A stretch of 64,000 nucleotides of DNA, taken from contig OZ024740.1 in the NCBI GenBank assembly GCA_964016885.1, positions 283,898,001 through 283,962,000 of the forward strand, in the 5' to 3' direction. Source of the stretch: Eledone cirrhosa. Lineage: Eukaryota. The notes beneath the pieces were generated by a model. It was not told the origin of the DNA and made no database searches. It was given only the letters and a program-made list of their open reading frames with translations. Below, one piece after another: positions 16,916 to 64,000 of this stretch. How positions within the stretch are numbered: position 1 is the first letter of the stretch; each line of letters opens with the position of its first letter. Made by a program: the position numbers and the translations under genes.

Positions 16916-19900
16916 AAAAGAAGAAAAGATCAGACTACATATTAGTAATTTTTTCTGGTTGAAGATGTGCCAGAAGTTCCCAGTTGAGGAAAACCAAGGA
17001 AGACTTGGGTAGAAGTGATGAGAGCTGATCTCAAATCGCTGAAGCTCACCAAGAAGACAAAGGAATACAAGAGGTGGAAGGGAGCTGTGCTGGAAAAGTC
17101 CTGTCCAACCCATGCAAGCTTAGAAAACAGCATTTAAAAGGATGATGATATGATGTTTGGCGTTAATCTGTAATTTATGTATCTTCAATTTTTTTCTTTT
17201 GTTTAGAATTTCAAGATTAGTATTACTCTACAAATGCCATCAGATATATATATATATATACACACGCACATACATACATATATATATATCTTCAAAATAG
17301 GACAAAGACAATGGAAAAAACAGTGGAAAGATCACCTCAGTTAACTTCTGGACGTCATCTCAGTTAACTTCTGGAAGTCACTATGGTTTTGGTGCATTAA
17401 GGTTGACACTGTTCATTCCAGTGCACACTGGGATATAACAAAAGACAAGTTATGACTTTAATCAAATTACACAAATATAGAGTGTATAAGGGCTTAGTCA
17501 AAGGAGAAAATATATAGAAAGGAGGGAAGTAATAAAACAAGAGAATAATAAGGACTGTAGTCCCACACGCAGACAAAGAAGAAAGACACTGAGGTGTAGA
17601 AAAGGTAATATATATATATATCAGAAAGGGTGTGGTAAAATACCAGATGGACTATAACCCACCAGAGTACTCAATTGGGGTAGTAGAGTGGGTAATATGA
17701 AAAGATTCAGGATCCCGACGGCTGAGCTCCAGCCGTTTCGACAGCTAGCCATTAGGGTTCTGATTTTTCATATATATATATATATATATGTATATATATT
17801 TATAAATATGTATATATATATGTATATATATTTATAAATATGTATATATATATATATATGTGTATATATATATTTATATATATATATATTACTTTTATAA
17901 ATATAATTATGAGTTTGATTAAATACAAGAATATAAATACTGATTGATCTCTGTAAAAATGTACATCACCTGATTGTCATTGTTTCCCATGCAAACCAGA
18001 TTGGTAGCAATAAGCCTTAGTTTCAATTAATCTTATTGATGAATTGACTTTTATCTTCATTCTTCACCACCCACTGGAACTGTAATATTTTTCCAATTGG
18101 CTAAACCTAATTTTTTTTTTTTTAATCTAAAAGCTACTATTAACTCTTAACAATTGGTATGGACTACATGAAATAATAGTAGCGAGATGTTCTTGAAGAA
18201 AAGCACAAAACCACACTATCACTGCATTACATGAAAAATTCAATGCTTTACTTTGATATTGCACACTTTCACAATGATCTGCCCACTGGTAAAGATACTT
18301 TTAGCATTTTAGTTAACCCGTTTTAAGACATTTTCTGCTAAATCATTGCATGTAATTAACAGCAATACTTTTTGGCATTGCCTCACAGCCAAAGAGATGT
18401 TAACGGATTCCTTATTGATGCTCAGTCTCTTCACTTTGATATGTAAGAGACTTAAAGAATACTTGAGAAATACTCAGCGTTACCCTGGAAATAAAGCACT
18501 AAGTTGATGGCTAATTTGTTGAATGAGAATCATGGTAATTTTGCCTGAATTTATCTTATTAGTTTATATTATTTTGTGCATTTCTACATGCCATTTCAGT
18601 TGCAGTAGAAATGTGAGCCAGAGGTTAGCGCGTGTCTGTCAGTGACTTCATGCCAATCAGACGAGTGATTGTTCTTCTGGATATGGTGTAGGATGTGTGT
18701 AGCAGCATCACCGTCCCAGATGTGGGAGCACTAGTCCATTGTGAGTTTTACCCCCTTGCTAGCTAGGAAAGCGGACATTAAAACGATGATGATGATTATT
18801 TTTCTGACTCTGAAGAAAAGGGCGAATCTGTTAGGTGCAATTCTAGCTATGATTAGGACATGTGGTTAACCTTTGGAAGAGTGAGTCATTTTCTTCCTGA
18901 GCAATACCTGTTAATCTACTATAAAAGGAAATAATGCATGCACACACACACATATATATATGCAAAAGGCAAACAAATAACAAAGCAAAAGACTCAGTAC
19001 AATGAGGAAATATATTAATTTTTCTTCATTATACTGTAATACTGTGTCGTTTGCTTTATTATTTCTGTTTGCCTCTTGCATACATATATATATGTGTATG
19101 TGTATGATTTTCCTTTTATTGTAGATTAGCAGTGGTAACTGACGTTGCTCAGGGAAAAACATGAATAAGAATGAGGTATAAAAATGTTTATTCATGTGTG
19201 ACACACGTTTCGTGATCGGCCAGCTCAAGGTACAATGAGTAACGATCATGCTTGATCTGATAACTCTCTCTCTGTCTTATATATATATATATATATACAC
19301 ACACACATAAAGTAAGCAGGCACGAATTCTCAAGGTTGCATCATATACAAACTTTATTCACATATGAAAATACAATATTGATTAAACCGCCTGTAACTAT
19401 CGTTACACACCTACCTACTATTTATATGATAACTGTCACTTCTTTACAGAAGACGCCCATCTCTTCAATAAATTCTCTATTATAAATCACCGCCAACTGC
19501 AGGCTAGTTTGATGACTGAACAGGCTTTGTTTAGATCACCTTTTCTAGACCCTACCCATGTAGTATGGGTGAGCAGTGCGTTCTCAAAAAGGGCTGCTCA
19601 GATACTCAAGACTCCGTCAAAGCATGTTGATGTTCAGGTTAACAGTGCAGTGACATTAGGGTTAAGACTTGAGCTGCTCACGTATGAGTCTGCACACATT
19701 GCCACTCCACCACCACTGTGGGACTTGTGAAGAAATATAGATGGCAATGTTACATGCTTGTGCTATAGACATAGCACCCACTCCTTCCTTGCAGCTATGT
19801 GTCCAGTGACAAGCCAAAGCAAGATAACAGGACAGCTACGAGGATCGCATGTGTTATTGTCAAGGAGTTGAACTTCTCCAGTGGGTGCAGCCATACTAAT

Positions 19901-21179
19901 CATGCTTGGCCAATTGCAGGTTGGTGAGGCTATTTAACCCATAGTTGGAGTGGATGGCTGTTGACTCTGTGAAGTTCATTCATCTTTTGATAGCTTGTTT
20001 TTGTACTGCTGGGTTTCCACTTACTCTCTTCGCCAGACCAGGGTCTGGTGGAGAAGTTGGTTTAGTCACTGACCACCTGAGCATGAAACGGGTTGTACTG
20101 GGCTACATGGTACCAGCAGCAGGTAGAGACAATAATATATATGACAATAATATATATAATATATATGAGTATTATTGACGGATGGGAAAAAAAAGTACTC
20201 AATACCGAAGTAGAGTTTAAATATTCATTTAATATGGGCAAGCAGTGAGCCTTGTTACTCTGGAGTTTCACCTATGCATTCGCAGGGTGCAGAACTTGAA
20301 AGCTGAAACTGCTTGGCACTGCCGTCGGGACTTTACATATCTCTATACCCACTCTGCATCTCCCCATGCATTGAGTATTCCCATTATTAGTGGTCTCTTT
20401 GGTCTCAGCATTGCTGACTCTTTTTCTCTCTCTTTCTCTCTCAAATGGCCACGTAGATTCTTTTCCGACAAATCCCTAATTTCCCTCGGAACCCCCGATA
20501 ATAGGTGTGAAATTCAAAATATAAGGACTAATAAATCAAGGTAACTAATAAAACCAAGGTAACTTGATCTCTGGTTTTCGTTTCTTTTTACATTTCTCTT
20601 CCTCTTCATACTGCCATCTGATTTTCTTACCCGGGATTTATCCATCTGCATTGTAAAGGCTTCCAAATTTACCATTTTCTATATATAATATTGAAATATA
20701 TTCCTAACCCTTTGGCAACGAACAATTTCCATGCATACACACTCACAAAATGGTAAATTTTAAAAACTAAGATAACGAAAGGTTACTTGGGCTCGCTCAT
20801 GTACATTCTGTGTACTCACGGTTCCAAATAATAGGTCGTCACCATTGAATTTTTTAAAGACCAGAATTAGTCGAGACCCCAACCCATCCTATTTATTTTA
20901 TAACGTATGGGATTTCTAGTAATGTACTTTTTTTGTCATGTATAATGTTTTTTAATGTATAAAGAAAATTAATTATCGCAGGAATGCTACCACTTTAAAT
21001 AAAATTTCGCTGGAGATAGATTAGTAAAATTATATAAGCAGAGAAATGGGGTGGAAAAAATCTGAAAAATTTATAAGCGTGGAGGGACATTTATTCAAGA
21101 CCTGAGAGTACGTGTTAGAGTATGGACGTCTTTAAAGTTACGTTGAATTGTTTTCCTTTGTTCACACTCTTCTGTTAAT

Positions 21180-27116: not shown

Positions 27117-27210
27117 ATATATGTAGAAGGTGAGTAATATTGTAGAACAATAAAACTATGCATATATCAGATAAGTAGCACTCAACAGTTGGTAAAACTG
27201 GAGTATATAT

Positions 27211-27520
27211 TAAAGAATAAATTAAAAGATGGTTAAAAAGTTCCATATATTTTACTATGCGCATTTTGAAAACATCATCCTGGGACAAAAATTGTGTTCT
27301 CATCAGATAAAATAAGGTGACATGATATGAGGCCTAAAAACACTTGTCAACAAGAAAGTGTAGACTGGACACTTTCTTGGTGACAAGTATTTTTAGGCCT
27401 CATATGTTACCTTATTTTATCTGATGAGAACACAATTTTTGTCCCAGGATTATGTTGTTTTCGAAATGCGCATAATAAAATATATGAAACTTTTTTAACC
27501 ATCTTTTAATTTCTTCTTTA
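27211..27520. mobile_element. About 310-bp palindrome, inverted Penelope-like pseudo-LTR pair
   Basis: Arms of about 150 bp fold about AAGAAAGTGT-agactgg-ACACTTTCTT, each arm contains the hammerhead fold, and the ends abut (TA)n. Confidence 0.7.
27413..27482 (+). ncRNA. Type I hammerhead ribozyme motif (Penelope-type, minimal palindromic stem III)
   Basis: TATTTTAT-CTGATGA-G...C-GAAA-TGCGCA-TA-ATAAAATA: perfect 8-bp stem I, intact core, self-complementary ATGCGCAT helix III, predicted cleavage after 27474. Stem II is imperfect. Confidence 0.8.
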
Positions 27521-27539
27521 TATATATATATATATACAA

Positions 27540-27995
27540 ATGTCACTGGACCGAGACCTTTGGCGGTACTCAGTAACAGAGAAGACCCGCCTTACCTAAA
27601 TATATAGTAAAACCTACTCCAGCCAGTAGGCATCTCTAACAAAATACACCCCGTCCCACCACCACCACCCCCACCCCATCCACACCACCCCGTTCTATGT
27701 AAAGTTATGTTGGTGCCGCGCCATCGAGGCCGAAACAAATGAGATCGTGTAGGTGTCACGACAAAAAAACACACAGTCCACGCTGTAATGTGGCCGTGTA
27801 GGCAACACGGTAAAAACCTCCCAGACCCACACTGTAAATGTGGTTGGTGTTAGGAAGGGCATCCAACTGTAGAAAACCTGCCAGACAGTCCTATGCGAGC
27901 AAGACAATCACTCTTGCCTCAAGTGGGACTACCCCCGTCCAAACCCATGCAAGCGTGGAACACGGACGTTAAACGTTGATGATGATGATGATGAT
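27540..27995 (+). mobile_element. RTE ORF end plus 3' UTR (young family)
   Basis: Encodes DRDLWRYSVTEKTRLT* followed by the same UTR as 9597-9999 and a (GAT)n tail. Confidence 0.85.
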
Positions 27996-28001
27996 GACAT
28001 A

Positions 28002-28892
28002 CAGGGTGCGGACGATATTTGTTCACAATTTTCAACTGCTAATTTTATGCAAATTTTTTTTACTTCCGTTGTCACTCTTGTCTCCCTAAAAACAGTGACT
28101 ATATTTCCATTATTTATTTTCAGAATAATTGATTATTAATAATTTTGAACCTCCAAATTTGTGGAAGAGACATGGAGTTCTTCTTGGAATCCGCGCGAGG
28201 AGAACAAATAAGACCAGAAGATCAACTCCCAGAACAACAGATGGCTCGCTGTCTCATCCAAAGACGTGCCCAGAGTCATGCAGACAAAGTTTCCAGCGAC
28301 AACATTGGTCTTAGGTGTCGTCAGCAGTCAAGTTGACGTCATGCCACTTCACTGCTTCCCTGAGGGCCTCAAAATGAACACCGATGGCTACATCCGCGTT
28401 CTGAGTAAGGTAGTAAAGCCCTGGATCGACCAGGTAGCTGCAGGTAGGCCGTACGTGTGGCAGCAAGACTCAGCGCCCTGCCATACCAGTCAAAAGACCC
28501 AAGCCTGGCTGTCAGAGAACTTCGTCGACCACACTTCACCTGACATCTGGCCTCCCAGCTCGCCTGACTGCAAACCCTCGACTTCTTTGTATGGGGCGCA
28601 GTGGAATGAGACACCAACAGATCTAGCTGCAATACGAAAGATGATCTGAAGGCCAGAATCACAAGTGCCTTTAGGGGCCTAAGTCGGGGGACAGTGACGA
28701 AGGCCTGTAGCCGGTTCCGAGGCCGCCTTGAGGCCGTCATCAAAGCCAATGACGGGTTTATTGAGTGAGATCGAAAGAACAAGTCATGAAGACAAACTGA
28801 CCCAAATTTGATAAATATATCTTAAAAAATAAAACTACAGTGTTATTTTTTCCCAGACAGTAATCTTGCGAACAAATACCGTCCGCACCCTG
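28002..28892 (+). mobile_element. Tc1/mariner DD37D (maT-type) transposon, internally deleted copy 2
   Basis: Same TIRs and TA flanks as 1092-2308. QQD-SAPCH...WPPSSPDCKP(L)D gives 37 residues between D2 and D3 after repairing a 1-nt frameshift. About 0.4 kb deleted near 28213. Confidence 0.92.
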
Positions 28893-30210
28893 TATATATG
28901 CATGAGGAAATGTATATATGAACATACATGTGTAGGCATGTGTATGTAAGTGCATATGTATGTTCTATTAATTTATTATTGATTTACTATTGACCCTGTG
29001 CCATCAATAATGATGGCAATAGTTGTGAACATATTGAATCTTTGGAGACCATAATTGGTATATCATATACACCAAGATTACCAGAAAGGTGTGGAAAAAA
29101 TAGCAGGTGTCAGATTGGAGGAGACTGAAGTTCTGTAGAATGGTACATTGAAGAGGAAGATGAGTGGACAGTAGGTGAGGGAGTAGGGAAGACAATTAGT
29201 GGTGAAGGGGAGGCATCACCAGTATAATAACAGGTAGTGTCAACAGCTATGTAAAATATTCTATATAAGATAATTAGTTCCTTTTAACAAGATTCAGTTG
29301 AAGCCTGATGGACAACTAAATTTTCAATATCATTTTATATATGTGATGATAGCTTTGTGAGAAAGGTGTCAAACTATACTGTCCACCAAACCTTGGCCAT
29401 GACATTACTCACCTTTTATTTTGTCTAAATCAACTTTATTTTGGTTTTATGATTGTTTAATCAGGGAGAAAGAGCTGCAACTATAACCTATTATATTTAT
29501 CTTTTTACTTGATTTAGTTAAAGTTTCACAACACATTATCTACTATGTGATTGTATTATTATTTTTTTTGCTTATGTAAAGACTTTTTGATTTTTCTGTC
29601 ACACATAATTAATTAATTTACAAAGTAGTAAAACAGTAAGAAGCTCATTTTTACTGACATGGCGATGTGTTACAGGATCAGTAGGGCATCGAAGTAAACA
29701 CTTTGTGCTATTTAGTTACATACTTTTACATTCATCATCATTGTTTTATGTCTATTTTTCCATGCTTGCATGGGTTGGACAGGTCCTTTTAAGCACAGCA
29801 TCTTTCCACTCAGTGTTCCTTCATCTCCTCTGTGAGTCTCAGCAATTTGAGATCAGTTCTCACCACCTCTTCCCAAGTCTTCCATCCACTGGCACTTCTT
29901 CACTCAGCAATCATCATCCATGTGCATCCTGACCAAGATCCTCACTGCCCTTTGTCCTTTTGAGGTTGATAAAATAAGTACCAGGTTTCAATGTAATTGA
30001 CTATACTTTTAAGTACAATTTTTTAAAATTTCTTTGGAGATAGTGTTACTGTTGAATGTTCAATTTGATTTTAACCACTTAACTGTATTTACTTGAATAT
30101 TAGCCAAATATTAGCCAGCATATATTTGAGTATACACGGTATATAAAAAGCTAGCACTAAAGAAATTGTTATACTATGCTCAGAGTATACCTTGCCTTTG
30201 ATAGGTTTAA

Positions 30211-30412
30211 TTAACCCTTTGGCATTTACATTACTCTATATTTACTATTATATTTTCATGGTGAATAATATCAAATCTATGAAATTTTGATATTATTTAT
30301 TTTGAAAACAATACCTTAACATCAGTATGAACAGCCAGTTAAGACTGGTTTGAACAGAAAGAGGTGAGAGAATTCTGTCTGGATATGGCTGGTTTAAATG
30401 CTAAAGGGTTAA
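30211..30412. mobile_element. piggyBac-type MITE (TTAA-flanked)
   Basis: TTAACCCTTTGGCATTTA...TAAATGCTAAAGGGTTAA. Other copies at 53316-53546, 57704-57920 and 116-190 (partial), plus the split copy 58783-58802/62608-62803. Confidence 0.85.
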
Positions 30413-32349
30413 GCATTAGTTTTATTCTAGAGAAACCTCTCTTTCCTTAATGAGTTATATTCATCTCTCTTGTGGGAAATGACTATCCTTTGTATTACAA
30501 AATTGAATATTTACAAATTCTATATCATGTATGTAGTCTGTACAACCAATTGGTATGCCTGAAAATACAGTTGAACTTAGAAGATAGGTTATCAGTAAAA
30601 CTGGAACATTAAGTTTCCCAAATAAACAAACAATTTGGTGGAATGCAGGAATAATTCTCTGGAAATAGTAAATAAGTTATGTTGCTTAGGTGACCTAAAA
30701 AAGCACTGAGGTGTAATTTAGGAGCCTACATCTATTGATAATATTAGTATTATTTTTGTACTAATGTCAGTTGGACTTGGTCTGCAATATAGTATCTCTC
30801 TAGTCTAATTTATTCTTTACAGATGCCTCCATCAATCACCTAAACTTTAAAACAATCACTAAAGATATAGCACATTCACTGGTTTCCTTTTACTTCAGCC
30901 ACCATCAACAACCTCATCATAGCATATTGTCATAAAACAAACGGCATCCATTTTTATCATGTCAAAATTTCATCATCAAAATTGAAAGTTTTACCTAATT
31001 TGATGCAGTTTTTAAATTGCTGGATATTGATTGGTAGTCTAAGAGAATGTATATACTTCCGGCTCCACTAAAGTAGAATGAGACTCATCTAGGTCGAAAT
31101 AGTGAGCTTTCACTTGTGAGACCTGTATATTTTCTTTATCATTTTAGACTATTCAGTCACCTAATGCCATATCTTTGTTGACTTCCTTTTACGTTAGCTA
31201 CCATTAATTGTCTTTTGGCACTCAAGCATCATCCATTTTCATCATATGTCAAAACTGTTACAATCACTCAGTACTTCTGATACTCAGTGTCTCATTTGTC
31301 TTATCCACACTAATGCTATCTTTCTGATTTATGAAATGCTTTCAACAGATCATACAAAATATTTTCCCTCCTCCAGTTTCTAGAAGATAGTTTAGACTTC
31401 CCAACTAACCAGCATTACTCTTCTGATAAAGGTATCAAAAACCAAATAATCATATTATTTATTTGTTATCGCCTACATGTTAAGAGTATTCTCATTAAAG
31501 TTGAATACCTATTGCATGTGAAGGTGTTTGGCTTACTGGTTAGAGTGTCTAGCTCACTCATAAAGTCATAAGTTTGATTCCTTGAACATGAAACTTTATT
31601 TCACATTGCTCTAGTTCACTCAGCTGAAAAAATTAGTTGTATTTGTGATTCAAAGGGCCAGCCTTACCACATGCTGTCATGCTGAAGCTCTCTCAGAATT
31701 CCATTAGAGGTACATGTGTCTTTGGAATGCTTAGTCATTTGATATTAATTTCACAATTACCTGGATGTTGTCTGTAAGAGAGAAGACAGTTCTCATATAT
31801 GATGCATATGGCACTGCCATACCTTGAATAAGGCACTCCTCCAAAACAACATCTATAATTACTCATACTAATACTGCATTTTAAGTTAATCACTTTATAT
31901 TTTTCTGTAGGCCAACAAAGTATAAATATTCCATTATTTTTAACCAATTAATTTTACTGCAATCATTTCCTCGGCAATATGTCATCTATGGTTCCCTTGA
32001 TTAAAATTCAAACTGCACAGAGGCTATCCTTATAACTTTCTGATTATATCCAGTTTGGAGATAAATGTGTAACCGTATTAGAGAATATGAATCAATTCTC
32101 TCTCTCTTCCTTCTGCATTTTCCACACACACATTTAACCTTACTTTTTTAATAATTTGGGGTTTATAATCCTCAAGGAAAATATATAGGTCTGATAACTA
32201 AAAGATCCAAATTCTAATTAAATTAGTTCTCATTTAGCTTTGGTGTAATCAAAACTCTCTGAGAGAGAAAATATATATATCAGTCAATCATCATCATCCT
32301 TTTATATTTGTAATAAATCTTGGGAAGGCCTATAGAAGTGATTAATAGT

Positions 32350-32898
32350 TTTAATTGCCTAGGAGCAGAAGAGGTTGTTCTGAAAGTATAGAACATAGAA
32401 TACAAACAGGATGAGAAAAAAAGTTTAGGGAGCTACTACTCTTATTGACAACAAAAGGCTTCTCTTTGTGAACGTAGGGCAGCTGGCTGTATGATGCCTG
32501 TGTGTAAATTGCAATGCAGCATGGTAGTGAGATGTGGGCAGTGAGTGCACATGATATGCGCAGGCTGGACAGAAATTAAGTGAGAATGCCCCAATGTATG
32601 CGTAATGCTAGTCTGCACGAAAAGCATAAAAGGAATCAGATGTTGCAGGAGAGATGTCTGTGTTGGTATGTGCATGTAATGACAATTGTTGGGCGAAGAA
32701 GTGCTAAAAGATCTGTGGGAGGAAGCTACAGAAAAGGAAAACTGAGGAAAACCTAGGCTGAAGCAGTGGGTGCTTATCTTAAATTGCTGAACCTCACATA
32801 TGAATGTAGAAGGAATGCAGTCTGTGCTGGGGAAGACCTCTCCAATCCATGCAAGTATGAACAGATAGATGTAAAGTGGTGGTGATGATGATGATGAT
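32350..32898 (+). mobile_element. Degraded RTE 3' fragment
   Basis: Homologous to 523-1083 with (GAT)n tail. Similar fragments at about 8870-9330, 16960-17150, 33240-33760, 34130-34330 and 45965-46215 (+), and 29735-29935 (-). Confidence 0.75.
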
Positions 32899-32913
32899 CT
32901 ATTATTGTATTAA

Positions 32914-33100
32914 GCTGGATTGGCAGTATCGGTAGAGGGTCGGACGCCATGCTTTCCAGCATAGTTACGTCCCTTTACGATCTGAGTTCAAATCCCGCCG
33001 AGGTTGACTTTGCCTTTCATCCTTACGGGGTCGATAAAATAAAGTACCAGTAATGCACTGGGTAATTGCTGGCCTTGTGCCAAAAGTAGAAACAATTATT
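32914..33100 (+). mobile_element. tRNA-derived SINE
   Basis: A box TGGCAGTATCGG, B box GAGTTCAAATCC, central GCCTTTCATCC..GGGGTCGATAAAATAAAGTACC, and a 14-bp target duplication ATTATTGTATTAAG (32901-32914, 33095-33108). Confidence 0.9.
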
Positions 33101-33918
33101 GTATTAAGAATTAGTTTATGTGAAAGATTATATGAGCACATGAGTTAATTCTATATAAAAATATATCTAAAGGTTTGTTTTATGATAATTATTTATAGTT
33201 AGTAGTAGGAGCATCAGTGAAATAAACCTTTTCCATCCGAGGCAAGATCCGTAGAGGTAGTTGATAGAAAAAGGTTAGAGAGCTGCTACTTCTGTTGATA
33301 ACAAAAGGTTTCTCTCCACAAACGAAAGGCTTGCTGTATGATGCCTGTGTGCAATGCTGCATGGTTGAGAGTCATGGGCAGTGAATGCAGAGGATATGCA
33401 AAGGCTGGAAAGAAATGAAGCAAGCATGCTTTCATGGATTTGCAATGTTAATATGCATAAAAGACAAAGCTTAGATGTGCTGAGAGAAAAGCTGTGTATA
33501 AGAGGAATGAGATGTAGTGCAGGAAAGAAGACTACAGTGGTGTGGATATGTGATGCGTATTGATGATGATTGTTGGGTGAAGAAGTGTGAAAAAATGTTA
33601 GTGGAAGGAAGCTGCAGCAGTGCTAAAATGGGCAGAAGTTGTGAGAGCTGATCTCAAATCACTTTAAAATTCCCAGAGTAGTTGAAAAAGGCATGTAATG
33701 AGTGGAAATATGCTATGCTGGAAAAGACTCATTGGCAGTCATGGAGAGAAAGAAACAGATAAAGAAAGCGAAGAAATTGAGCAATACTCATTCAAATATC
33801 CCTCCCTCTCTCCTGTGTTCAATCAACATATTAGCCATCCTCTCCTCTATCAGCTGCAGAATGTGTGGTCATACATTCTTTTGTATGTCTTTGTGGTCAT
33901 ATCTACTTCATATTTAGC

Positions 33919-33951
<33 letters not shown>

Positions 33952-33965
33952 CACACATATGATGA

Positions 33966-34015
<50 letters not shown>

Positions 34016-34451
34016 TCATCATCATCATCATCACTGTTTTACGTCCGTTCTTCCACGCTAGCATGGGTTAGACGGGTGATAAAAGCCGACCTTACCCAAT
34101 TACACCTCTCAAAGGTGATGACACACGACCTACTTCCACTGTTGATCAGAAAAGGGTTTCTCTCTAGGTACAAAAGGACACCTGTATGATGCTTGTGTGT
34201 GAAGTGCGATGCATGGTAATGAAACATGAGCTGTGACTGCAGAGGAAATGCTTAGACTGGAGAGAAATGAAACAACCATGCTTCATTGGATGTGCATTGT
34301 AAATGTAAGAGAAAGCAGAGTTTGGATGAGCTGAGGGACACGCTGGGTTTAAGAAGACTCTGAAGCAGTGTGCAGAAAAAATATCGAGTTTTGAATGAAA
34401 TTTCATTATTTTCTTTAACCTGGGCAATGCCAGGTACTTCTACTAGTATAC

Positions 34452-34498
34452 AGATGTGTGTGTGTATGTATGTATATATATGTGTGTGTGTGTATATA

Positions 34499-34555
<57 letters not shown>

Positions 34556-34790
34556 GTGTGTGTGTGTGTATATATGTGTGTGTGTATATATGTGTGTGTA
34601 TATGTGTGTGTGTGTATATATGTGTGTGTGTATATATGTGTGTGTGTATATATATGTGTGTATATATGTGTGTGTGTGTATATATATATGTGTATATATA
34701 TATGTGTGTGTGTATATATATATATGTGTATGTGTATATATATATGTGTGTGTATATTTATATATGTGTGTATGTATATATATATATATA
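34452..34790. repeat. Compound (TA)/(TG) microsatellite
   Basis: Alternating TA and TG runs directly after a Helitron 3' end. Confidence 0.95.
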
Positions 34791-37700
34791 ATCATTTTAC
34801 AACTGATTTCCAAACTTGTATGGGTTGGATGGGCTGTTGTGGTCTGAGGTAAAGCAGACCAGGGGTAGAGGGGATGGAAACCAACCTTTTTCATCTATTT
34901 TTGGCATGATTTCTATAACTAGATGCCCTTCTTAACACCATTACAGAGTAAACTAAGTGCATTTTATCATATCACCGCATGTCTACTAAAGATGTTATTG
35001 GTGGGTGGGGGTAGGGGGGGGGGGATATACAAATCTGACAACTTATGGATCCTCATTTTACTTTAGTTATATGTGTGCTATTCAGCCTCGATGCAGTTTC
35101 TACACTACTGGATGTTTTATTCTGGATATTGACTGGTGTATAAACAGTGTAAGAGAACATGCATACTTCTGACTTCACTGAAGCTGAATGAGACCCAACT
35201 AAGTTGAAATAGCAATCATTCTGTTGTCAGACCTGTATGTTCTTTCAAGGGGTTATAATGCCAAAATTATTTTAGTACAAAGCTAAATATATTTCTGTTA
35301 CCATTTATATACTATGTTATTTGAGAATCCTGCAACCTCTCAATGTTGTTCTTTCACTTCGACTTCTGTTCTTACATATATGGTTGACACTTAGGTTAAT
35401 TTTAATTAAAGGTATTTGCAGTTGTGTTATTCTATATTTTAGTATTTACACATTTATTACATAAATAGACATACTAGAGTATTGATATTCAATGACAGTC
35501 TAGATTATTTTCACAAACATACACCACATTAGGAAATGCTTTAAGGTTTTTCTTTTTATATAAATGTAGTTAGTTCCTATTTTCTATGTTCTATTTCCCA
35601 TATTTTATCCCTTTTTTAAACATAGTACTTGTTCATTTTAATGATCTACACATGTCTGTTGTCTAGCAAGACTTCTACTTCATATGCAGGTATGAACTCA
35701 ATTGGTTGAATGTCTATTTGTGATTTTTTTTTCTGTAAGAAATGTTACAGATAACTAAATGATGTTGCATTCCAAAATTGTATCTAAATCTATTTTTTAT
35801 ATTTTAGAATTAATTTTATATATATGGATGAAACTGCCCCCACACATACACCTACCATGACTCCCCAGACATTAAAATATTAATGATAACTTCTATTCTT
35901 ATCAAAATATGTACATTCATTGGTTTCAATATCTGAAAATACCTTATTTTTGTGTATTATAAAATGTATTTTCCTCTTCATCTGCAATTCCACTCAGGTA
36001 TATATAACAATAGTCTGTTTAGTTATTTGTCTATAATAATTATTTACCTCTTTCCTTAAAATAAACATTTAAAAAGTTTTTGAATATTTTTGTATAATTC
36101 AGGTGGTTCTGAAAATTTAGGCACTCCCCTAAATTGTTTTACAGTTAATTTCTATCAATGTTAGCAGTATACAGTAAAATGTGGATGTTATCTCTGTTTT
36201 TAAACCAGGCAAGAAAATGCAAATTGACAACACATGTTTGCAGCAGGATTTGAATGTATTTCTTCAAATTTTTATTTAACAGTTTCATAGTAATTTGGAC
36301 ATTAAATTTAATTATAAATTGTTTTGCTGCTTTTAAATACATTTTCTTTACTTAACATTCTTCAGTTAAACTTACTTCCCCAAATACTGATGATTATGCT
36401 CTTGTATTCAGTTGCCTAACAAAGAGGCAAAAAGAGGTTAACATTAAAAAAAAAAAAAACTTTCATCTTTCAACTAAAATTACATTTTATAATACAGAGC
36501 AATTTTTTTTAATTAATGACTTCTCAATTATCTCCTCCTGATTGGAAGGCTTCTAAATATTGCTCAGCAAAAATTGTATAATATGCATGTGTAACTAAAG
36601 TACTGGACTGGGAACCTTAGAATTCTTAAATGTGTTAGTTATCTACTGAATTATTACCTAGAGAATTTTAGTTGTTGGGTTTTCTAACTTTCATTTGCAA
36701 ACATCAGTCTCTCTTTCTATTTCCAACAATATTTACCAAATGGTAGGCCCTTTAGTTACCATCTGGTATTTCACTCACAAGTGTTAAAGTGGTGGGAAAG
36801 AAAATTTTCTTCCAACAAATTGTTTTCCCTTCAAATATGTAATAAGTCCCTGCTGTTTTAAACATTGAAAAGAATGACATTAGTAAAACATTTACCAAAA
36901 GTTGTCATACTATTATATTGTAATGGGAGTCAGTTAGTGTGGAAGGTCTGTCATTAGCTACTAACTTCTGAACCAATTTCCATAATTTCTTGATTCTCTC
37001 TCTCTAATTGAAAATCTTTATAATAATTTGATGGAACAAACAACCAATCTTTCTCTTTGCCCTTCAGTCATTGCTCTGAAAAAAGGAACATTTAACATTT
37101 ATATCTGCCAATCAACAATCATAGCTACTACATTATTAAACAACAAACAGACAGCCAAGTAACATTTAATGATTAGAAAAAATGGAGATGTAATTTATTT
37201 CAAAGAAAAAGAATTGACATTGTCTTTTGCCTCCTAGGAACATCATCATCATTATCATCATTTAACATCTGTCCTTCCAAGCTGACATAGATTGGACTCA
37301 TCTAGCATAAATTCCCCAGATAAACATGCTAGTGTTAATCATTTCCAATTAACTATTTTAGAAAGCTTGAATTCTCAACATATCTTCTAGGACTGTTGAA
37401 ATATTTATTGTTTGACTCATCAAGAATTGTTTTAATAGTGTTTTTGATTAATGTCAGAATTACAGAGCTAACTTTTTTGTTTTTATTTTAAGACTAATTT
37501 AACATATTTAGTTCTTAAATACTAACCCAGCATCATTTACAATTGAAAATTGTGAACTCAATGCTAACAGTTAAAAATGTTGATAAATCACTGATAGCAA
37601 TCATTAAATTATCTACTGCTATAGATCTAACACCTTCTATTATGCTTTAAATAAAATGCAGCATGTCTTCTTACATAAATTATCTTTGTTCTTCAAAATA

Positions 37701-40700
37701 AACAGCATTCTGTAGCTTGCTAGAAGTTGAGATAATCTTATCTTAATATATAAAAGTGAATGCATGTATGTATGATCCAAGTTATAGGCCACAGCTATGC
37801 ATCTAGGATGGTGAATTTTGCATAGGGGCATATTGTTTCTAAGGGAAGGTCAAAAGCAATGTGACTTTTTCTGAAATTTATTCTTTTTAGCTTCAGACAG
37901 AAAAAATATATAAGAATATATTACACCCACAAATGCTACTATTTGCATTGGGAAAAGTTATGCATTTTAAAAATAATTAATTCTGAAAAAAAGTGCATGT
38001 TTTCTGAGAAAATAGAAAACTGGAAGAGCAAAATTTTAATTTAGATTCTATATTTGATTTTTGTTTTTTACACATTTTTGTGAAGCTCAACTCAAACCAT
38101 TTGCCTGTTGTCCTTCTGAAATTCTTAAAATAAAGTATGCATCAAGTACTGGAGTAAATGTAATTGACTTTCTACTCTCCCCAAGTTGCTGGCCTTGTCT
38201 TGTATCTATATTAAAAACTAGTATATCCTCTCAATCTTTACTGATATTATAACATACTTCAGAACTTTCTGCATTAATTCCACTTTCTCTCAAACTGACT
38301 CTTTGTGTGCATCTTTCAGCTACTCACAACTTTTCTGCTTTTTATTTTTCCTGAATTCTATATGAAACATTGCAAGCTATCTTTTGTTCTAAAGTCTGAT
38401 GTGTTATGAACTACCCCCACCATCATATTCCCACTTCACATTAACCACCAGTTTAACAATCTTCAAATTAACCAAACCTATTTTAGTCATCTCTTTCCAT
38501 ATTTCTGGTTTTTTTTCCAAGGGTACTCTGCCATAGGCTGTGTACACAAAATTACAAATATATTTAGCTTATGACTTGAAATAAATAAAAACATGGTTAT
38601 TTATAAGGGTGAAAGAGGGTCTGATACACTTGAGTTGGAAGACACCGTTCATACTTACTGCAGGTATGAATTTGTTAATTGTTATGAATACTTCACAAGA
38701 GTAGCTATAGATTTGTCATTTAGCCAAAGCTGGTATGTGTTGAATTGATTTTGGTGTTTGTTATATTGAAATTAATTAAAATTCATGATTGTATCATTTT
38801 GGTTCAGATATCCAAATTAGTTTTTTGTAAGATGATTATTAGTTCTTTTATAAACTATTATTAAATTTAGAACATTGTGCTTAAAACAGTAGACTACAAG
38901 GGACTGAATTAACAGACCACATAATAAATGTATTAGACAGTTGTTATGAAGGTAGTTTAGTATTTAGTTTTGTATTGAAGTATGACACTGAAAAGGTAAT
39001 GCTTGTTGTAGTATAATCAGCATATTTAACACAGCGGAAATGCTTGCAGGATTTTGTTTGTCATGACATCATAAGCAGTGCTTAGCTTAGATTAAGGTGT
39101 TAAGACATATATCAAAATAGGGAGATATTTGATTGAGACAATTATTTAATGATGAATTTGTGGTAGCCCTAAGCATTCATAAAAGTTTTCTTTTGAGCCT
39201 ATTAATTATCAAATTAAAAGACCTCATTCTAGAACAGATGTGCAATTCTGTTGTTCAACTAACTTCATCATCATTGAAGAATACATGAGAAAATTGTGGA
39301 AAACAATTTGTTGTACAGAAACAAAACTGCAGACTAAAATAATCAAGTAAATATGACACAGGCTGGCGTTTTAGTGACTTCCAGAGATCAAGCATATCAA
39401 GGAACATGTTTCTTTATACTGTAGAAAATTATATATATGAGCTTTCTGTTGTATAAACAATGCCATCAATGTGTTCCTATAAAGTACAGTAATATTTTTA
39501 GCAGATTGCCAAAATAGTTGCACTCTAAATGTTCACAATACATTATGCAGTAAGTAGTGAATTCAACCCATTTGTAAAGGCCATGAATTGCAATAATGCA
39601 GCTCTTTCAAGAGAATATTGTTTTTTTGTTATGCTCTTTATTTTATTCAATGCAACAGTTGAACGTAGTAGTTAAGATATATAGTAAGTGAAATATGTTT
39701 TTGAGTAATTTTTGTGTTCTTGTGATAAAGAGACATATTTTATGTAGAAAAGATAGAATATGTGAAGCTTAGACTAATAGTCTTGTATAATAGCAAAAAT
39801 ATTAAGTGAAAAAACAAAAAGGAAAATGCCTGCAGATTATGATGAACACTTTAGGAGTAGAGAAACTTTTTAATACTAGGGGGTGAATTGCATGTGCATA
39901 AAACCCTGTGACAAAGAATAATAACAATTTAAAAAATTTTATAGATTCATTGGTATGCAACTTATATTAAATTATTGTTTTAGTTGGCTTAAATGGTTTA
40001 TTTTTCATATGGATTTTTGAAAGCTTTGTCAGCAAGTAATTTCAAATGTGAATACAGGCAAAATTTTGCCTGTGTGAGGGGTTCTCCAGGCATTGTCTAC
40101 AAGTATATAAACCTAAAAGATGATAAGAAAATTATTAGTATCAGTATCACTCATTCAATTGCAATATAATGTTTAATATTATATGTGAATTTGTGTTACA
40201 CTTCTGGCAGGTGGCATTTTTGGAGAGGAAAGATTGAGAAAAGTGTTTTGTGTAAGATCAATGGAGTCAAGGGAAGGTGAACGACAAGAATGAGGAGATG
40301 AGGAGACACAGGTCTGGGTGTAAAGAGTATGCAGGTAATTACCTTTTTAGGAACAGAGATCTTTGTAGTAGTCGTAAAATAGGCAGAGAGAAGAAACAGT
40401 ATCTTCGAACTTGAGGCTGTAGCATGTTGATGAGTGAATCTTTTCCAATCAGTTGATTTACCCAGCACTGATATTTTAGCCTACATAAACAACTACTTTC
40501 CTGATAGCATCAAGTAGTATCACTTTCAGTTCAAATGATATTAAAATTCCCCTGCAAGTGTTAAATATCTTAAATACTACTAATTTTTGTAATATGATTC
40601 AGCAGCTGTTATAAAGTCCTAGCACAGACTTTCCTTGCAGTTTTTTTTAAAAGGTATATGGATAAAAGTAGTTGTTGTTTGAAAATATTAGTTTAGGCCA

Positions 40701-42956
40701 TAATTTTATATACAAATATGCTTCCATACTATTTGATCTAACTCAACATTTCACTGCAATAGTGTTCATTGTGTAGATAAATCTTTGCTCCACTAAGACA
40801 TCTCATTTATTGCTTAAATTAAATATTGCTTATGTTTAGACAATCTACTATAAAAGAGCTAATTTGTCTTAGTTCTTGTTGATGATATTAATTCAGACAT
40901 GGTCATTGACATTACTGGCTAAAGCTTTTCTAAGATAATAAAGTTAGGATGAGTATTACTAAGTTGTAAATAACTAGTAGATCAACTTGTTTTCTGAAAG
41001 TCGTGACATATATTACTTAACTAGTTGAAAAACAAAAACCCAAAAGTCCATTGTGCTTTATATTTATTGTGCTAGTTTTTCTACTCCTACACTAAAATAG
41101 CTTTCAGGATGCTCAAGATCTACTACTATGATAGTGTTATCATTTCATTTATTTTTAAAATGGCCATCTCTGGTCTATCAAGAAATAGGATTTGCTTTAG
41201 ATGAACTTTAGATCTCCATGTATACAATACACTACCATAGCCTGTATGTCTACTAGTTGAATGTCAAATGTTTTCTATTTGAATTACTTTCACTTTGTTT
41301 TCAATCTTTTTAAAACAAATCTTAGTTATGTTCTTTTCAATAATGTTTTTTGAGGTTTCTTCACACACCACATCATTGCAGCATATATTGACAAACTATT
41401 TCCGACCCATATTCTATCAACTCTAGTGTATACCAAACATCTTAGTGTACATTAATGACCTAAAAGCTATCAGTGGTTAACATGACATACCTCTGTAGCA
41501 AAATGAAAAATGTAGTGAAGTTCATTGTTTTTAACCTTTTGCATACAACTGTCATTCACATACACCATAACCATTTCTTGCCAAACAAGAACTACTTCCA
41601 TGAACAGTTGCCATGAAAAAAATATCCTTCAGTTGGGACATAAAAACTCTTGCCTACTTCAACAGCACAAAGACATGATTGTTACACATGTTAAGGAAGC
41701 AGTTTTGTAGATCACTTTCTCTATACATAAGAACACACAAATAAACCTCTCAAAGTCACTTTAAATACTAAGTTTTACAGTTTGTGTTGATTTCTCATGA
41801 TTTCACACATTGCCAAAACTACAGCTTAAAGGTTAGCTTTCCTCTTTAGAGACAGTAAAGGCTTCTACCCTGATCAATTGCTGATAAAGTATAAGCATAT
41901 TGGAGTACTGTTCATATATTTGAGAGAGTGTTCTTGCTGTAAACACACACACACTCATAAGCATCCAGAAGGTTATCCAGCTGCTTTGCAAATATTCACC
42001 CATCAATATGCTGCAACCACTATCTCATGCTGTTTCTTCTCTCTACCACTTCTATTCCCCCTCCCCTGTCTCTTCTCACCTGTCTCTTCTCACTCCTACT
42101 GTTCCCCCCACCCATCTAACCCCCACCAGATCTTAAACTAAAACATTTTCTCAGTCCTCCTTTCCTACCCACATTTTTCCTGTAGACATGTTGAAATGGA
42201 ACATCAACCACATTGATTTCACCGGTACGGGAGGCTTTTCCTCTTCCTGCAAGTTAGATCTAAGACAGTGTGGAGATAGAGAGACTACACTAACCAAAGG
42301 AAGTTAGATTCTACAAAAACAAATATCAAATATATATTATATAAATGGAACAGAATATTGAACATAAATAATGTTGCTAGTAGATGCTAGCAAGGAAAAT
42401 GGACGTTAAATGATGATATTATATATATATATATATATATATATACACAAGTACATCCACACCATCTTGAAGATTTGCAATGGAAACTGTAGCATGCTGT
42501 GGTGCCTGATTTGGTGTGGTAATTAAATAGAAGACCCTGCCATCTATTGTATGTTTACACACTTCTAATAGATTATAATTTATTTATGTATTTATGTCTG
42601 AGGATGTGAAAGCTGAAATATTAGTTATAACTCCTAATATTAGATCTTCATTTAACACACTCATCACTAAACAGTTCATTAATCTCAGCAGGTTAATGGA
42701 GAATGGGTAGTAGTAACACCTGTCCATTACATGACAACTTGAATGGAGGATTTTTCAGAGAGGTCTAAAAGAATTACCTGAATGCACCACATTTAGCACA
42801 TTTCTCATCCATCCTTTTTTAAAATTGCTAATCACCTGATGTTTGAAAAATGTCTGGACAACCATGTTTAGTAGTTTTGAAGCAGCTATTGATCTTTGTT
42901 CTGAAATATATATATATATATATCTATATATATATCCATATGTGGCTGATGACTGA

Positions 42957-43149
42957 GAGAAAGGAGTACTCAATACCGAAGTAGAGTTTTAATATTCATT
43001 TTATTAAGGCTAAATAGTGAGTCTTGTTACTCTGGAGTTTCGCCTGTTTATCACAGGGTCATCAAACAGTTCTTGTCTGATGACCCTGTGATAAACAGGC
43101 GAAGCTCCAGAGTAACAAGACTCATTATTTAGCCTTAATAAAATTAACA
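42957..43149. mobile_element. Inverted Penelope-like pseudo-LTR pair (family 2)
   Basis: Arms of about 67 bp (42998-43064 / 43078-43144) with hammerheads. Related copies at about 20190-20290 (-) and 43887-43952 (-). Confidence 0.7.
43071..43120 (+). ncRNA. Type I hammerhead ribozyme motif, variant core (GAAG)
   Basis: TCTTGT-CTGATGA-cCCTG tgataaa CAGGc-GAAG-CTCcaGAG-TA-ACAAGA: 6-bp stem I, 4-bp stem II, short stem III. The mirror copy on - (43022-43068) has canonical GAAA but TTGATGA. Confidence 0.72.
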
Positions 43150-43156
43150 CATATAT

Positions 43157-43365
43157 CATCATCATCATCATCATCATACGTCCGCTTTTCCCTGTTTGCA
43201 AGGGTGGGACGGGACCTATTCAGCACAGCATCTCTCCATTTATCACGGTCCTTTGTCATCTCCACTGTGAGCTTCAGCGATCTGAGGTCTGCTCTTACCA
43301 CCTCCACCCATGTTTTTCGTGGTCTACCTCTACCACGTCTTCCTTCAACTGGCACTTCTTCACCC
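43157..43365 (-). mobile_element. Short 5'-truncated RTE, same family as 523-1083
   Basis: EVPVEGRRGRGRPRKTWVEVVRADLRSLKLT plus (TCA)n tail, lying between two hammerhead palindromes. Confidence 0.88.
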
Positions 43366-43377
43366 ATATATATATAT

Positions 43378-43834
43378 GTGTGGGATGCTTAAAGCATCCA
43401 TATGCAGTAAGCCATTTGAGCATTCGATGCTCTTACAGAGCAGAGTATAATATCACATAAGAAACGGAGAATCAGTGGTGCGACGAATTAAAATTTATTA
43501 GACATATTACAATCCTTTCTCTGGCGACCAGCTCGAGGGGCGATTGATGTGATGATCGAACCTGACTCTGAAATCGCAAGATCCTCAGATACGTTTCCAA
43601 ATTTGGAAACTCTGCTTCGAAAAGCCGAGACGTATCTGAGGATCTTGCAATTTCAGAGTCAGGTTCGATCGTGCCTCGAGCTGGTCGCCAGAGAAACGAT
43701 TGTAATATGTCTAATAAATTTTAATTCGTCGCACCACTGATTCTCCGTTTCTTATGTGATATTGTACTCTGCTCTGTAAGAGCATCGAGTGCTCAAATGG
43801 CCTAGCGCATACCGATGCTTTAAGCATCCCACAC
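43378..43834. mobile_element. About 457-bp palindrome, inverted Penelope-like pseudo-LTR pair (family 3)
   Basis: GTGTGGGATGCTTAAAGCATC...GATGCTTTAAGCATCCCACAC with near-identical arms of about 210 bp, a hammerhead in each arm, and (TA)n on both sides. Confidence 0.72.
43629..43711 (+). ncRNA. Type I hammerhead ribozyme motif with extended stem II
   Basis: GACGTAT-CTGAGGA-TCTTGC...GCCAGA-GAAA-CGATTG-TA-ATATGTC: 7-bp stem I (one G.U), intact core, near-palindromic helix III, followed by AATAAA. Mirror copy on - at about 43501-43595. Confidence 0.8.
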
Positions 43835-43835
43835 C

Positions 43836-43887
<52 letters not shown>

Positions 43888-44363
43888 GTTAATTTTATTA
43901 AGGCTAAATAATGAGTCTTGTTACTCTGGAGCTTCACCTGTTTATCACAGGGCAAGGGGTCAGAGGATTGGGATTATAAGCCATTGTCAATGGTGTAGGA
44001 CCAAAATATTGAAGAAATATGGCCAAATATTTTCTTACTAATAACAGTTACTGTTGATATATATTTTTCATTGAACATGTGATGATCAAAGACAACTAAA
44101 TGAACATGAACAGTAACCAAAACTCATCTTTATAAATTAATGTCACTATGTATGGTAGAAGTCAGTTGTATGATGCAATCATTGTCCATGTTGCATGGCC
44201 AGCTAAGATGTTGCATCACCAAGTGTTTTAAAGTAGTATAATGCAATAATGTTTTCATATTTAATCACCCTAATCATTTACTCTTCATAAATCAAATCTT
44301 ACAGTCTTTCAGAACTATCCATTATTTATCGGCGCAAGTTTTACTATTACAACCTGAGTCATC

Positions 44364-48312: not shown

Positions 48313-49253
48313 TTTAATATATATATTATTTCCTTTCTGTACTTTTTAGTCAATTTGTAGCATGGAGGTATATGTTCAAATATTTTAAAACAGCTCATAA
48401 ATTCAGCACTTTTCTCAGAGGCTCTAATTTGACTTAGGACCACACCATATTCTCCATAATCAGTGTATTTTGCTACCTGATTTAGTTCTTTCTTATATTA
48501 CTGAAGATCCCAATTGATTCATCACTGCACCACCATTGTTTTGTGTGTGTGTGTGTGTGCACATGCGTGTTCTCAGGTTAGCCCTGATAGAGCAGATAAA
48601 CCTATGATCGATCTGCTTGACATCAGTCATGACCATCCCATATTGTATTCAGATAGTATATCCAGGACTATCTAATGTATTTTTCCTTTTTTAAGACTGA
48701 TGGGTGTGATATTAGAGATATTTGACTATTATTTCTAGCAGGTCAATTGATTGCATAGAGAGTGCAGTCAATATAGGTTGTTTATGTGATTGTAATGGTT
48801 GTTGACATGGTAACTTTTAATGGTTGATAAAGAATGTCATTGCCAATAATGGATTGAAATATTATAGCCTGGAATTGTTTGTATTTCAAGTGAATAGAAT
48901 GTGGAATTCAGATGAAAAGGTCATGGAAGAGGGTTGTATTGTGTTGTTAGATGACCATCAGGTATTGATATTTTAAATGTGATCCATAACTGAATATTAG
49001 AAAGGAAACAAAACAAAACTTTATTGTTTCTAATAATCTTTTAGATATCTATGCTCATTGTATTCTTATTTTGCATTCCAATATCAACAAAGTCATCTGA
49101 AACAATTATGTTTGATAGCATGAATGTATTATCAAAAATATGTTTCTATATTCTTTTATTTTCTATTTCTTTCTCTGACTTTTTTTTATTTAGTTTTTGC
49201 TGTTTTGTTTTTAACTATGGTTTTTTTTTTTTGTTTTTTTTTTTCTATTTCAG

Positions 49254-49326
49254 AGGTGTCTGAAGGAAGAGAAACCTTAACTGAAGGAAGGCATGAGTTC
49301 AATTTTGCTTTTGATCTCCCAATGGG
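49254..49326 (+). CDS. ARRDC3: Alpha-arrestin coding exon 2 (73 nt)
   Basis: Long poly-T tract plus TTTCAG acceptor ending 49253. Reads (E)VSEGRETLTEGRHEFNFAFDLPM(G), the G.HEF.F.F.LP arrestin motif. Donor GTAAAT at 49327. Phases 1/2 fit exons 1 and 3. Confidence 0.92.
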
Positions 49327-50000
49327 GTAAATGTTTTGTAAATTATTATGTTAATATAAATAAAACAAACAATTTATGTAAGATTTCTTTTCATTATATC
49401 TTTTATTAGAACATTAGAAAAATATGTCCAATTCTAATACAGTCTTAGGTAAACTGCAGCCCAAAGCCACATGCAACCCATTTGGCTTTCTGAATGGCAT
49501 GCCTAATTTCAAAATTGCATTGAATTTTTTAGTAGTGCAGTCCACCTTATGATGAGCCACTGCTTGGAAAAGGTTGTGTATTTTTGGCAAGTGACTTGAT
49601 CTCAGATCATGTGTTAAAACTAGAACCATTTACACTGTGGAGGAATAATTTTGTCTTTCTAGATGTCTAAAATGAGTCTTCTATGAGAGCTTCAAGTTTT
49701 CTATTAACTCTTTGTCTAATTATGTAGTTTTTCTTCTCCAGTGATCAGTTGTTAATATTGGCAATAATTCAGTCAGTTATTTCTACAAGTTGAAAAACTA
49801 TATAGTACAAAAGATACATATTTCCAAAAACTTAGCCATATCTGCACCCATTAAAAGAAAAAGACTATGTGGACAAGGAGGTTGCTTCACATCCATGTGG
49901 TTTTTGGTTCACTCATACTGTATGACACTTTGAACAAGTGTTTTCTTGTGATGTATGTCTAGTATATAAAATTCAGTGTAACTAGTATATGGTGTGTGTG

Positions 50001-61800: not shown

Positions 61801-62608
61801 TGGAAGAAGTTCAAGGAGCTACTGCTAGCTGCAAAAGGCTTTTCCCTCAAAATGAAAGGCAGACTGTATGATGTATGTATACGAACAGCAGTGTTACATG
61901 GTAGTGAGACCTGGGCGCTGTCTGTGGAAGACTTGTGTAGATTAGAAAGAAACAAAGCCTGCATGCTTCGATGGATGTGTAATAGTATATACGCGAACGG
62001 CAAAGCATAAATGAATTGAGAGAGAGACTGAGCATAAGAGGAATCAAATGCTGTGTGCAGGAGAGGCGGTTGCATTGGTATGGACATGTGATGCGTATGA
62101 AGGATGACAGCTGCATAAAAAGGTGCAGAGCACTAGAAGTCGATGGAAACCGCGGAGTGGGGAGACCCAAGAAGACCTGGCATGAGGTGATAAAAGCCGA
62201 CATTACCCAATTACACCTCTCAAAGTCGATGACACGACCGTGCCCTCTGGCGACATGCAGTAATACAGAAGACACCGACACCCATGGGTACAAGCCGAAG
62301 CTGAAGTATATAGACAATATGCCCTCACACCCTCCCATTGCAAAGTGGTCATGGAGGTGCCACAGCAAAAAAAGCACCCAGCCCACACTGTAAAGTGGAC
62401 ATGTAGGCGCCACGGAAAAAAGCACCCAGCACTCACTGTAAATGAGGTTGGTGTTAGGAAGGGCATCCAGCTGTAGAAATCAAGCCAGAATCAGTTCCTG
62501 TATGAGCAAGACAAGGTCAGCCAACCGGACACTACTCACAACAGGACAACCCGTTTAACCCATGCTAGCATGGAAGAACGGACGTAAAACGGTGATGATG
62601 ATGATGAT
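58803..62608 (+). mobile_element. Near full-length RTE-clade LINE (APE endonuclease + RT + PHD-like finger), inactivated
   Basis: IDVCCVQETRW, SAYAPQ, AGDFNGHVG (APE); YRGIKL, QFGFVPGRGTTDA, FVDLEKAFDRV, GVHQDSVLSP, LLYAADL (RT, YADD mutated); RLHWYGHVMR and GRPKKTW C-terminus; 3' UTR ending in (GAT)n. Several stops and frameshifts. Confidence 0.95.
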
Positions 62609-63981: not shown

Positions 63982-64000
63982 GTAGATATTTTCAGCTTTG

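Follow-up and report, generated by a model that had tools for sequence, protein, structure and literature searches.

The occurrence of putatively self-cleaving RNA motifs inside an intron raises the question which kind of element brought them there and how they are tolerated. This question is posed by a stretch of 64,000 nucleotides of Eledone cirrhosa (assembly GCA_964016885.1, contig OZ024740.1, positions 283,898,001 to 283,962,000 of the forward strand), hereafter called the window, in which three palindromes, P1, P2 and P3, had been described from the letters alone (the original prediction) as carriers of hammerhead ribozymes within an arrestin gene. The position was confirmed, as exons of an ARRDC3-like (alpha-arrestin) gene on the plus strand flank the palindromes, which lie in its first coding intron. 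In our analysis P1, P2 and P3 are very probably dead, 5'-truncated, back-to-back insertions of three families (A, B and C) of Penelope-like elements (PLEs) with the marks of the Hydra clade, which entered (TA)n, likely in one integration event each. The families are new, and the kind of element and the arrangement have already been published.

Runs of TA adjoin all three palindromes, the arms of which are 87–92% identical within each palindrome. Between the families, comparison of the window with itself by BLAST revealed no DNA alignment that exceeded 19 nt in length or had an E value below 0.2, so that the lack of similarity claimed originally holds for the DNA; as proteins the families are not unrelated, the reverse transcriptases (RTs) of A and C being 48% identical over 102 aa. 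Genome-wide, 1356, 2106 and 2759 first-look candidates were found for A, B and C, respectively, which shows a high copy number, and for each family 40 candidates were scored and 30 loci fetched (90 loci). Among the scored candidates the closest copies are 93–97% identical to the arms in the window. The copies have a fixed 3' end beside TA runs and a 5' part of variable extent, and many consist of one arm alone (17 of 30 in family A); on inspection, the sequence 3' of the copies at the 90 loci is mostly a TA run or a tail.

No PLE coding sequence was found in the window by tblastn with six PLE protein pieces, in line with the original prediction, which had seen no open reading frame (ORF) for an RT or a GIY-YIG endonuclease there. 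Longer copies elsewhere carry one or both, joined to hammerhead arms in all three families. In family A an arm of 94% identity is preceded, at a distance of ~820 nt, by a 647-aa frame for RT and endonuclease (locus L228), a relative with arms ~80% identical to P1 displays an ORF of 715 aa between two pseudo-long terminal repeats (pLTRs; L231), and two further loci have an inverted 5' pLTR (L232, L238). Members of family C show RT/GIY-YIG coding sequence and the hammerhead arm on one strand (L091, L097, L114), and at five of 25 loci (L097, L101, L105, L107, L114) the endonuclease or the 3' untranslated region (UTR) continues into the arm on the same strand; the loci of this family were taken with 1.5-kb flanks, too short to reach coding sequence in most others. 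For family B the endonuclease, with RT fragments, was located on the strand of the hammerhead arm at L153 and L154, and at L159 the endonuclease and upstream sequence share one strand, so that a same-strand link is present in three of 12 fetched loci.

These coding sequences bear the marks of a particular clade. The CxCX5C linker occurs in the ORFs of family A, in family C (L091) and in family B, where it was read from the DNA of L154; the endonuclease motifs CxxC and CxH, in place of CCHH, are found in the family A ORFs, DKT in four relatives of family A (L231, L233, L234, L238) and YRDD in the family proteins. Only one copy, L238, reaches the N-terminal RWK region, where it reads RLRWI, with R[ML]RW[KRQP] in unnamed relatives. 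A C-terminal GIY-YIG domain, CxCX5C, DKT, CxxC, CxH, a 3' type I hammerhead and (TA)n are likewise described for endonuclease-bearing (EN+) PLEs of the Hydra clade such as Hydra-1_Obim and Penelope-13_HM, the latter with a 5'-truncated inverted copy and a hammerhead on each strand, which is the arrangement encountered here (Craig et al., 2021, PMC8557442). Since longer copies encode RT and/or GIY-YIG and carry Hydra marks, P1, P2 and P3 are regarded as 5'-truncated, 5'-inverted Penelope-like insertions in (TA)n. The Penelope origin, the inverted pLTR and the (TA)n targeting postulated originally are thus strongly supported, and instead of non-autonomous, retrozyme-like elements truncated copies of ORF-bearing families were found.

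The clade itself is greatly expanded in this genome and, judged from its reading frames, may have been active recently: one Hydra-type RT piece yielded 40,398 first-look candidates, and several Hydra-type copies have open frames of 640–730 aa. A HMMER search returned 12,124 protein relatives, with names in none of the ten clusters looked up, and a search with the endonuclease piece against longer proteins gave no match at 1e-10. A different PLE with a CxxxxCxxC-type linker and broken frames, presumably Neptune-like, was encountered at L095 (6415-8639, minus strand), with pieces also in L094 and L254; within the 3' UTR of a copy of family C, the same locus contains a satellite array (1991-3368) built from a 32-nt unit that recurs in L104.

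With respect to the hammerheads, a type I descriptor gave exactly two matches in the window, one in the right arm of P1 and one in that of P3; each is on the plus strand and hence the sense strand of the host gene, and none of 60 Markov controls reached two matches. The cores CUGANGA and GAAA, stems I to III in type I order and a UH cleavage site are intact in only two of the six arms; P2 has no intact arm, and the left arms of P1 and P3 are broken as well (Table 1), which contradicts the claim that each palindrome hides a complete fold on each strand. Changes at G12, A15.1 and C3 are damaging to the hammerhead. For C3 this is also reported by Frangieh et al. (2024, PMC11167929). Two of the cleavage sites foreseen originally, after 27474 and 43704, are exactly those predicted by the descriptor; for the third, 43114 in P2, the descriptor gives no match, and the right arm of P2 bears A15.1G at 43104. 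The right arms of P1 and P3 hold intact motifs with predicted cleavage.

Copies outside the window bear on the conservation of the fold. Intact cores were present in 81 of 104 family copies, and when the search was made blind to stem I, 22 of 25 matches in the genome samples described below still paired over at least 4 bp. Across the loci collected, 38 of 65 distinct combinations of 5' and 3' flanks paired over 4 bp, against a shuffled mean of 6.8 and a maximum of 14 in 1000 shuffles, so that stem pairing is kept in divergent sequences and the hammerhead fold is conserved across the source families. Comparison with Rfam, suggested as a check, gave no hammerhead family among the matches to E 5 for the window or to E 10 for three single arms.

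How the back-to-back arms arose can be approached through their ends. Each family has an optional extension past the common 3' end, which corresponds to the PLE tail. It is present on exactly one arm in all 12 pairs of family A and in 13 of the 16 of family B (none with both, three with none), in sum in 25 of 28 pairs (p=1.4e-5 against 0.5); this count omits one A and two B loci in which the partner is 3'-truncated, as well as four B loci with an arm short of the 3' end. For family C one tail was counted in 14 of 17 rows and a tail on each arm in the remaining three (P3 and one locus listed twice), a proportion biased by a query that included the tail. A tail on one arm in so many pairs points to one coupled double-priming event. 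Moreover, non-consensus variants are shared five-fold more between arms of the same locus than between arms of different loci in families A and C (0 of 2000 permutations each), and six of ten family A junctions show microhomology of 2–5 nt; the arms of P1 overlap by 3 nt.

A mechanism may be proposed as follows. The endonuclease of the element would cut both strands of a self-complementary TA run, and both 3' ends would prime reverse transcription, probably on the same RNA, one at a distal start that includes the tail and one at a proximal start; both cDNAs would stop early and be joined, at times via short microhomology. The hammerhead would serve RNA processing of the parent element and would need a same-strand partner or the help of a protein to cut. 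A PLE protein that cuts both strands of AT-rich DNA, RT starting at two sites that bound the tail, a predicted dimer and a hammerhead assisted by protein have been described (Frangieh et al., 2024, PMC11167929), as have inverted 5'-truncated copies, tails at one end and (TA)n targeting in PLEs (Craig et al., 2021, PMC8557442).

Several observations weigh against this interpretation. The Pfam match of the GIY-YIG domain is weak (E 0.019, below the cut-off) and none of the Hydra-type RT pieces matched Pfam; placement in the Hydra clade is drawn from motif marks, and the link of family B to its element comes from three of 12 loci. P3 belongs to the rare class in which either arm has a tail. In family B shared variants are not in excess between the arms of a locus (794 of 2000 permutations), and the sharing in A and C could stem from later gene conversion. 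Of 43 junctions 26 have extra or unaligned bases, and 13 of the other 17 overlap by at least 2 nt (chance 16%; the family B reference is poor), so that microhomology is suggestive in A and unclear overall.

The palindromes have to be seen against the load of the whole genome. When 40 samples of 10 kb each, spaced evenly over the genome and amounting to 399,800 called bases, were scanned with a slightly relaxed descriptor, 25 intact motifs of many families emerged (two of these look weak), against a mean of 0.15 in 20 third-order Markov controls. The sampled average is ~62 intact motifs per Mb, which extrapolates to ~190,000 per 3.0 Gb (Poisson range 120,000–280,000, widened by clustering). With the same descriptor the window has two per 64 kb, which is below this average; the intron is therefore not enriched, and the special collection seen in it originally dissolves into the background. 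Contigs of four public runs of one study contained ~5,800–6,200 matching records in each of three runs, with many different joints, and no contig piece of the four runs spanned the palindrome stretch. Searches of the open literature listed no study that deals with the load of hammerheads in cephalopods or with their strand bias in introns.

Two observations were made in other genes. In a myosin gene intron (L290, ~5300-6900) six head-to-tail units of ~310 nt, each with an intact hammerhead, lie antisense to the host gene and are followed by one inverted unit, a retrozyme-like array. Several palindromes in the gene bodies L266-L294 have hammerhead arms that are 100% identical, which indicates recent insertion or homogenisation by conversion.

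Given such numbers, it was of interest how intact motifs are endured in introns. According to the original prediction the antisense arm clamps the ribozyme in double-stranded RNA (dsRNA). Folding supports the clamp as such: the hairpin is favoured over the hammerhead by 90.7, 74.5 and 105.8 kcal/mol in P1, P2 and P3, and for the minimal P1 and P3 motifs alone the difference is 1.3 and 3.6 kcal/mol. In host pre-mRNA the hairpin is hence predicted to out-compete the ribozyme fold. As a transcript of either strand meets the antisense arm first, the clamp needs no adaptation; it would be a by-product of integration, which selection may favour passively inside genes.

Whether it also explains tolerance was analyzed in gene bodies that amount to 755 kb and belong to 17 myosin-head genes, seven kinesin genes and the arrestin gene, with the strand taken from exon matches and an intact motif called clamped if an inverted copy lay within 1 kb upstream; C3 myosin and C1 kinesin, possibly very long, were omitted, their status as single genes being uncertain. 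If unclamped sense hammerheads cut or stall pre-mRNA, they would be purged from introns and back-to-back copies would survive, locked as dsRNA, a tentative supplement to the integration model given above rather than its competitor. Clamped were 16 of 19 intact motifs in sense, 12 of 25 in antisense and seven of 25 in the genome samples (Fisher p=0.025 for sense against antisense, p=0.0003 for sense against genome samples). Broken unclamped copies show no such bias (five sense, three antisense), and in the same genes neither RTE-like (65 vs 74) nor short interspersed nuclear element (SINE)-like copies (49 vs 55) have a strand bias; these labels, like mariner-like below, are our own assignments by eye and not from a database.

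However, tandem copies are not independent, and counted by insertion events the unclamped intact motifs amount to two sense and six antisense (p=0.29), with p=0.13 for intact against broken. The kinesin replication set of 170 kb, with one unclamped sense and no antisense motif, adds no support, the arrestin gene as source of the idea stood in the first set, and genes and genome samples differ in chromosome mix. Irrespective of gene orientation, retention of the core does not differ between solo (43 of 57) and palindromic copies (38 of 47; p=0.64); masking of another 3'-end signal would yield the same pattern, and published single minimal PLE hammerheads do not cleave alone (PMC11167929, PMC4209133). 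Thus the hairpin part of the clamp idea stands as a folding prediction (75–106 kcal/mol), and the part on intron tolerance, not significant by events, has suggestive but not decisive support. The full scenario, in which selection in genes purges unclamped sense copies from among ~190,000 intact motifs while head-to-head copies from coupled priming silence themselves as dsRNA hairpins, is conceivable, though on balance unlikely.

Other origins fare worse. An origin from non-autonomous retrozymes or SINE-like elements, mobile as one palindromic unit, would agree with short, numerous copies devoid of a local ORF, with the tandem array of ~310-nt hammerhead units elsewhere in the genome and with the reported descent of retrozymes from PLE pLTRs (bioRxiv 10.64898/2026.07.22.740005). 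However, junctions vary by locus, arms are unequal and often single, longer copies continue into an ORF, and at L093 the same inversion has arms of more than 1 kb that include the endonuclease; the varied junctions and the ORF link largely refute this origin, which we consider very improbable. Still less credit is given to a domestication of the ribozymes by the host for regulation of the arrestin gene: the two intact motifs both lie in sense orientation, but with two motifs chance alone gives 0.25, motif density is below the genome average, the close similarity of the arms to their nearest copies marks them as young, and the hairpin is predicted to block the fold, with no same-family, same-strand dimer partner for either motif in the window, and on these grounds the role was rejected. 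Least probable of all are miniature inverted-repeat transposable elements (MITEs) or fold-back DNA transposons at TA sites with hammerhead-like motifs by chance, which TA-flanked long inverted repeats do resemble and with which the Rfam result would agree, as descriptor matches far above controls, the stem I pairing, and the polarity, 5' truncation and RT link that fit retrotransposition speak against them, and the ORF linkage refutes them.

The features that make up the locus are compiled in Table 1.

Table 1. Palindromes, element ends, hammerhead motifs and host exons in the window (positions count from its first nucleotide).
Feature	Position	Strand	Remarks
Palindrome P1	27204-27528		Self-BLAST of the window
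Palindrome P2	42995-43147		Self-BLAST of the window
Palindrome P3	43366-43848		Self-BLAST of the window
Family A tail extension	27122..27203	-	Left arm of P1 only; corresponds to the extension past the common 3' end of further copies
P1 inverted arm, family A 3' end	27204..27361	-	G12A at 27267 breaks the hammerhead core
P1 forward arm, family A 3' end	27359..27519	+	Ends in (TA)n
Intact type I hammerhead motif, P1 right arm	27413..27482	+	Type I descriptor; 8-bp stem I, palindromic 6-nt stem III, predicted cleavage after 27474
Family B tail extension	42946..42988	-	Left arm of P2 only
P2 inverted arm, family B 3' end	42995..43068	-	C3U (43065), truncated stem I
P2 forward arm, family B 3' end	43068..43145	+	Probably inactive hammerhead motif 43071-43120 with A15.1G at 43104
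P3 inverted arm, family C 3' end with tail	43382..43597	-	One pair of stem III lost at 43515
P3 forward arm, family C 3' end with tail	43603..43836	+	Ends in (TA)n 43836-43885
Intact type I hammerhead motif, P3 right arm	43628..43712	+	Type I descriptor; 8-bp stem I, long stem II, predicted cleavage after 43704
Single family B 3'-end fragment	43884..43952	-	Cut before first core box
Older single family B 3'-end fragment	20214..20288	-	80% identity; without first core box
Host ARRDC3-like (alpha-arrestin) coding exon	5500..5757	+	Upstream of P1-P3
Next host coding exon	49253..49327	+	Puts P1-P3 in one intron, ~43.5 kb
Host ARRDC3-like coding exon	63817-63990	+	

Five further exon matches of the ARRDC3-like gene lie outside the window, and its closest named protein relatives are molluscan. 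A fourth palindrome (62910-63350) has the same build, with a fixed end in TA and a one-sided extension from ~63350, and 881 first-look candidates genome-wide; no hammerhead core was detected in its arm or, on the element strand, 1.5 kb upstream at five loci (four of them without any). It may derive from the 3' terminus of a PLE devoid of hammerheads, for example a Naiad; no link to an ORF was found. An older palindrome (18908-19132) with arms 78% identical has related copies in three of the 40 genome samples and no hammerhead by descriptor. Besides, two mariner-like transposase remnants in opposite orientation (1336-2100 and 28212-28649) are 95% identical over 331 nt, a degenerate RTE-like long interspersed nuclear element with several broken frames occupies 59151-62393, and short RTE-like 3' ends with (ATG)n tails adjoin P1 and lie between P2 and P3.

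Compared with known systems, the three families have clear relatives and some peculiarities. The unit of family A, ~3.7 kb, exceeds the size of Hydra clade elements, given as "generally <3 kb", and the copy number is very high, whereas few Hydra families outside cnidarians are reported; unpaired bases at the foot of stem II in family B match many of the listed Hydra motifs (Craig et al., 2021, PMC8557442). The assumption that such elements are uncatalogued in the lineage does not hold for the kind of element, as Hydra-1_Obim from an octopus is listed with hammerhead and (TA)n in the same source; it may hold for the families, since by eye its hammerhead differs from those of A, B and C. Minimal hammerheads of metazoan PLEs, of type I, with a short palindromic stem III and mostly in truncated copies, agree with ours, and pairs on opposite strands 100–700 bp apart in Schistosoma mansoni are like P1, P2 and P3, though the load estimated here, ~190,000, is higher than the 2,000–9,000 per genome obtained there with a different descriptor (Cervera & De la Pena, 2014, PMC4209133). 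PAc Poseidon of Anolis, a member of a different clade, offers a target cut on both strands of AT-rich DNA, two RT starts that define the tail and a protein-assisted hammerhead, as proposed here, with tails of 30–40 nt instead of ~45–90 nt (Frangieh et al., 2024, PMC11167929). Non-LTR retrozymes share the type I hammerheads derived from PLE pLTRs, which are reported to be under-represented in introns, but they form head-to-tail tandems without an ORF, unlike P1, P2 and P3, which are head-to-head truncated ends of coding elements (bioRxiv 10.64898/2026.07.22.740005). In the main text of PMC13282606 and PMC8967140 the word ribozyme is absent.

The locus itself is ordinary transposon debris. Its wider value lies in the rule of one tail per pair, found in 25 of 28 pairs, which constrains the mechanism for inverted PLE ends, named an open task by Craig et al. 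(2021, PMC8557442). As to cleavage of PLE hammerheads in vivo, Frangieh et al. (2024, PMC11167929) found no RNA ends at the hammerhead site; a genome with ~10^5 copies permits a direct test of strand bias, in which our small sample leans to activity. If purging of unclamped sense copies were true, it would provide population-scale evidence of PLE hammerhead cleavage in vivo, and the hairpins left behind by these elements would be a large source of intronic dsRNA.

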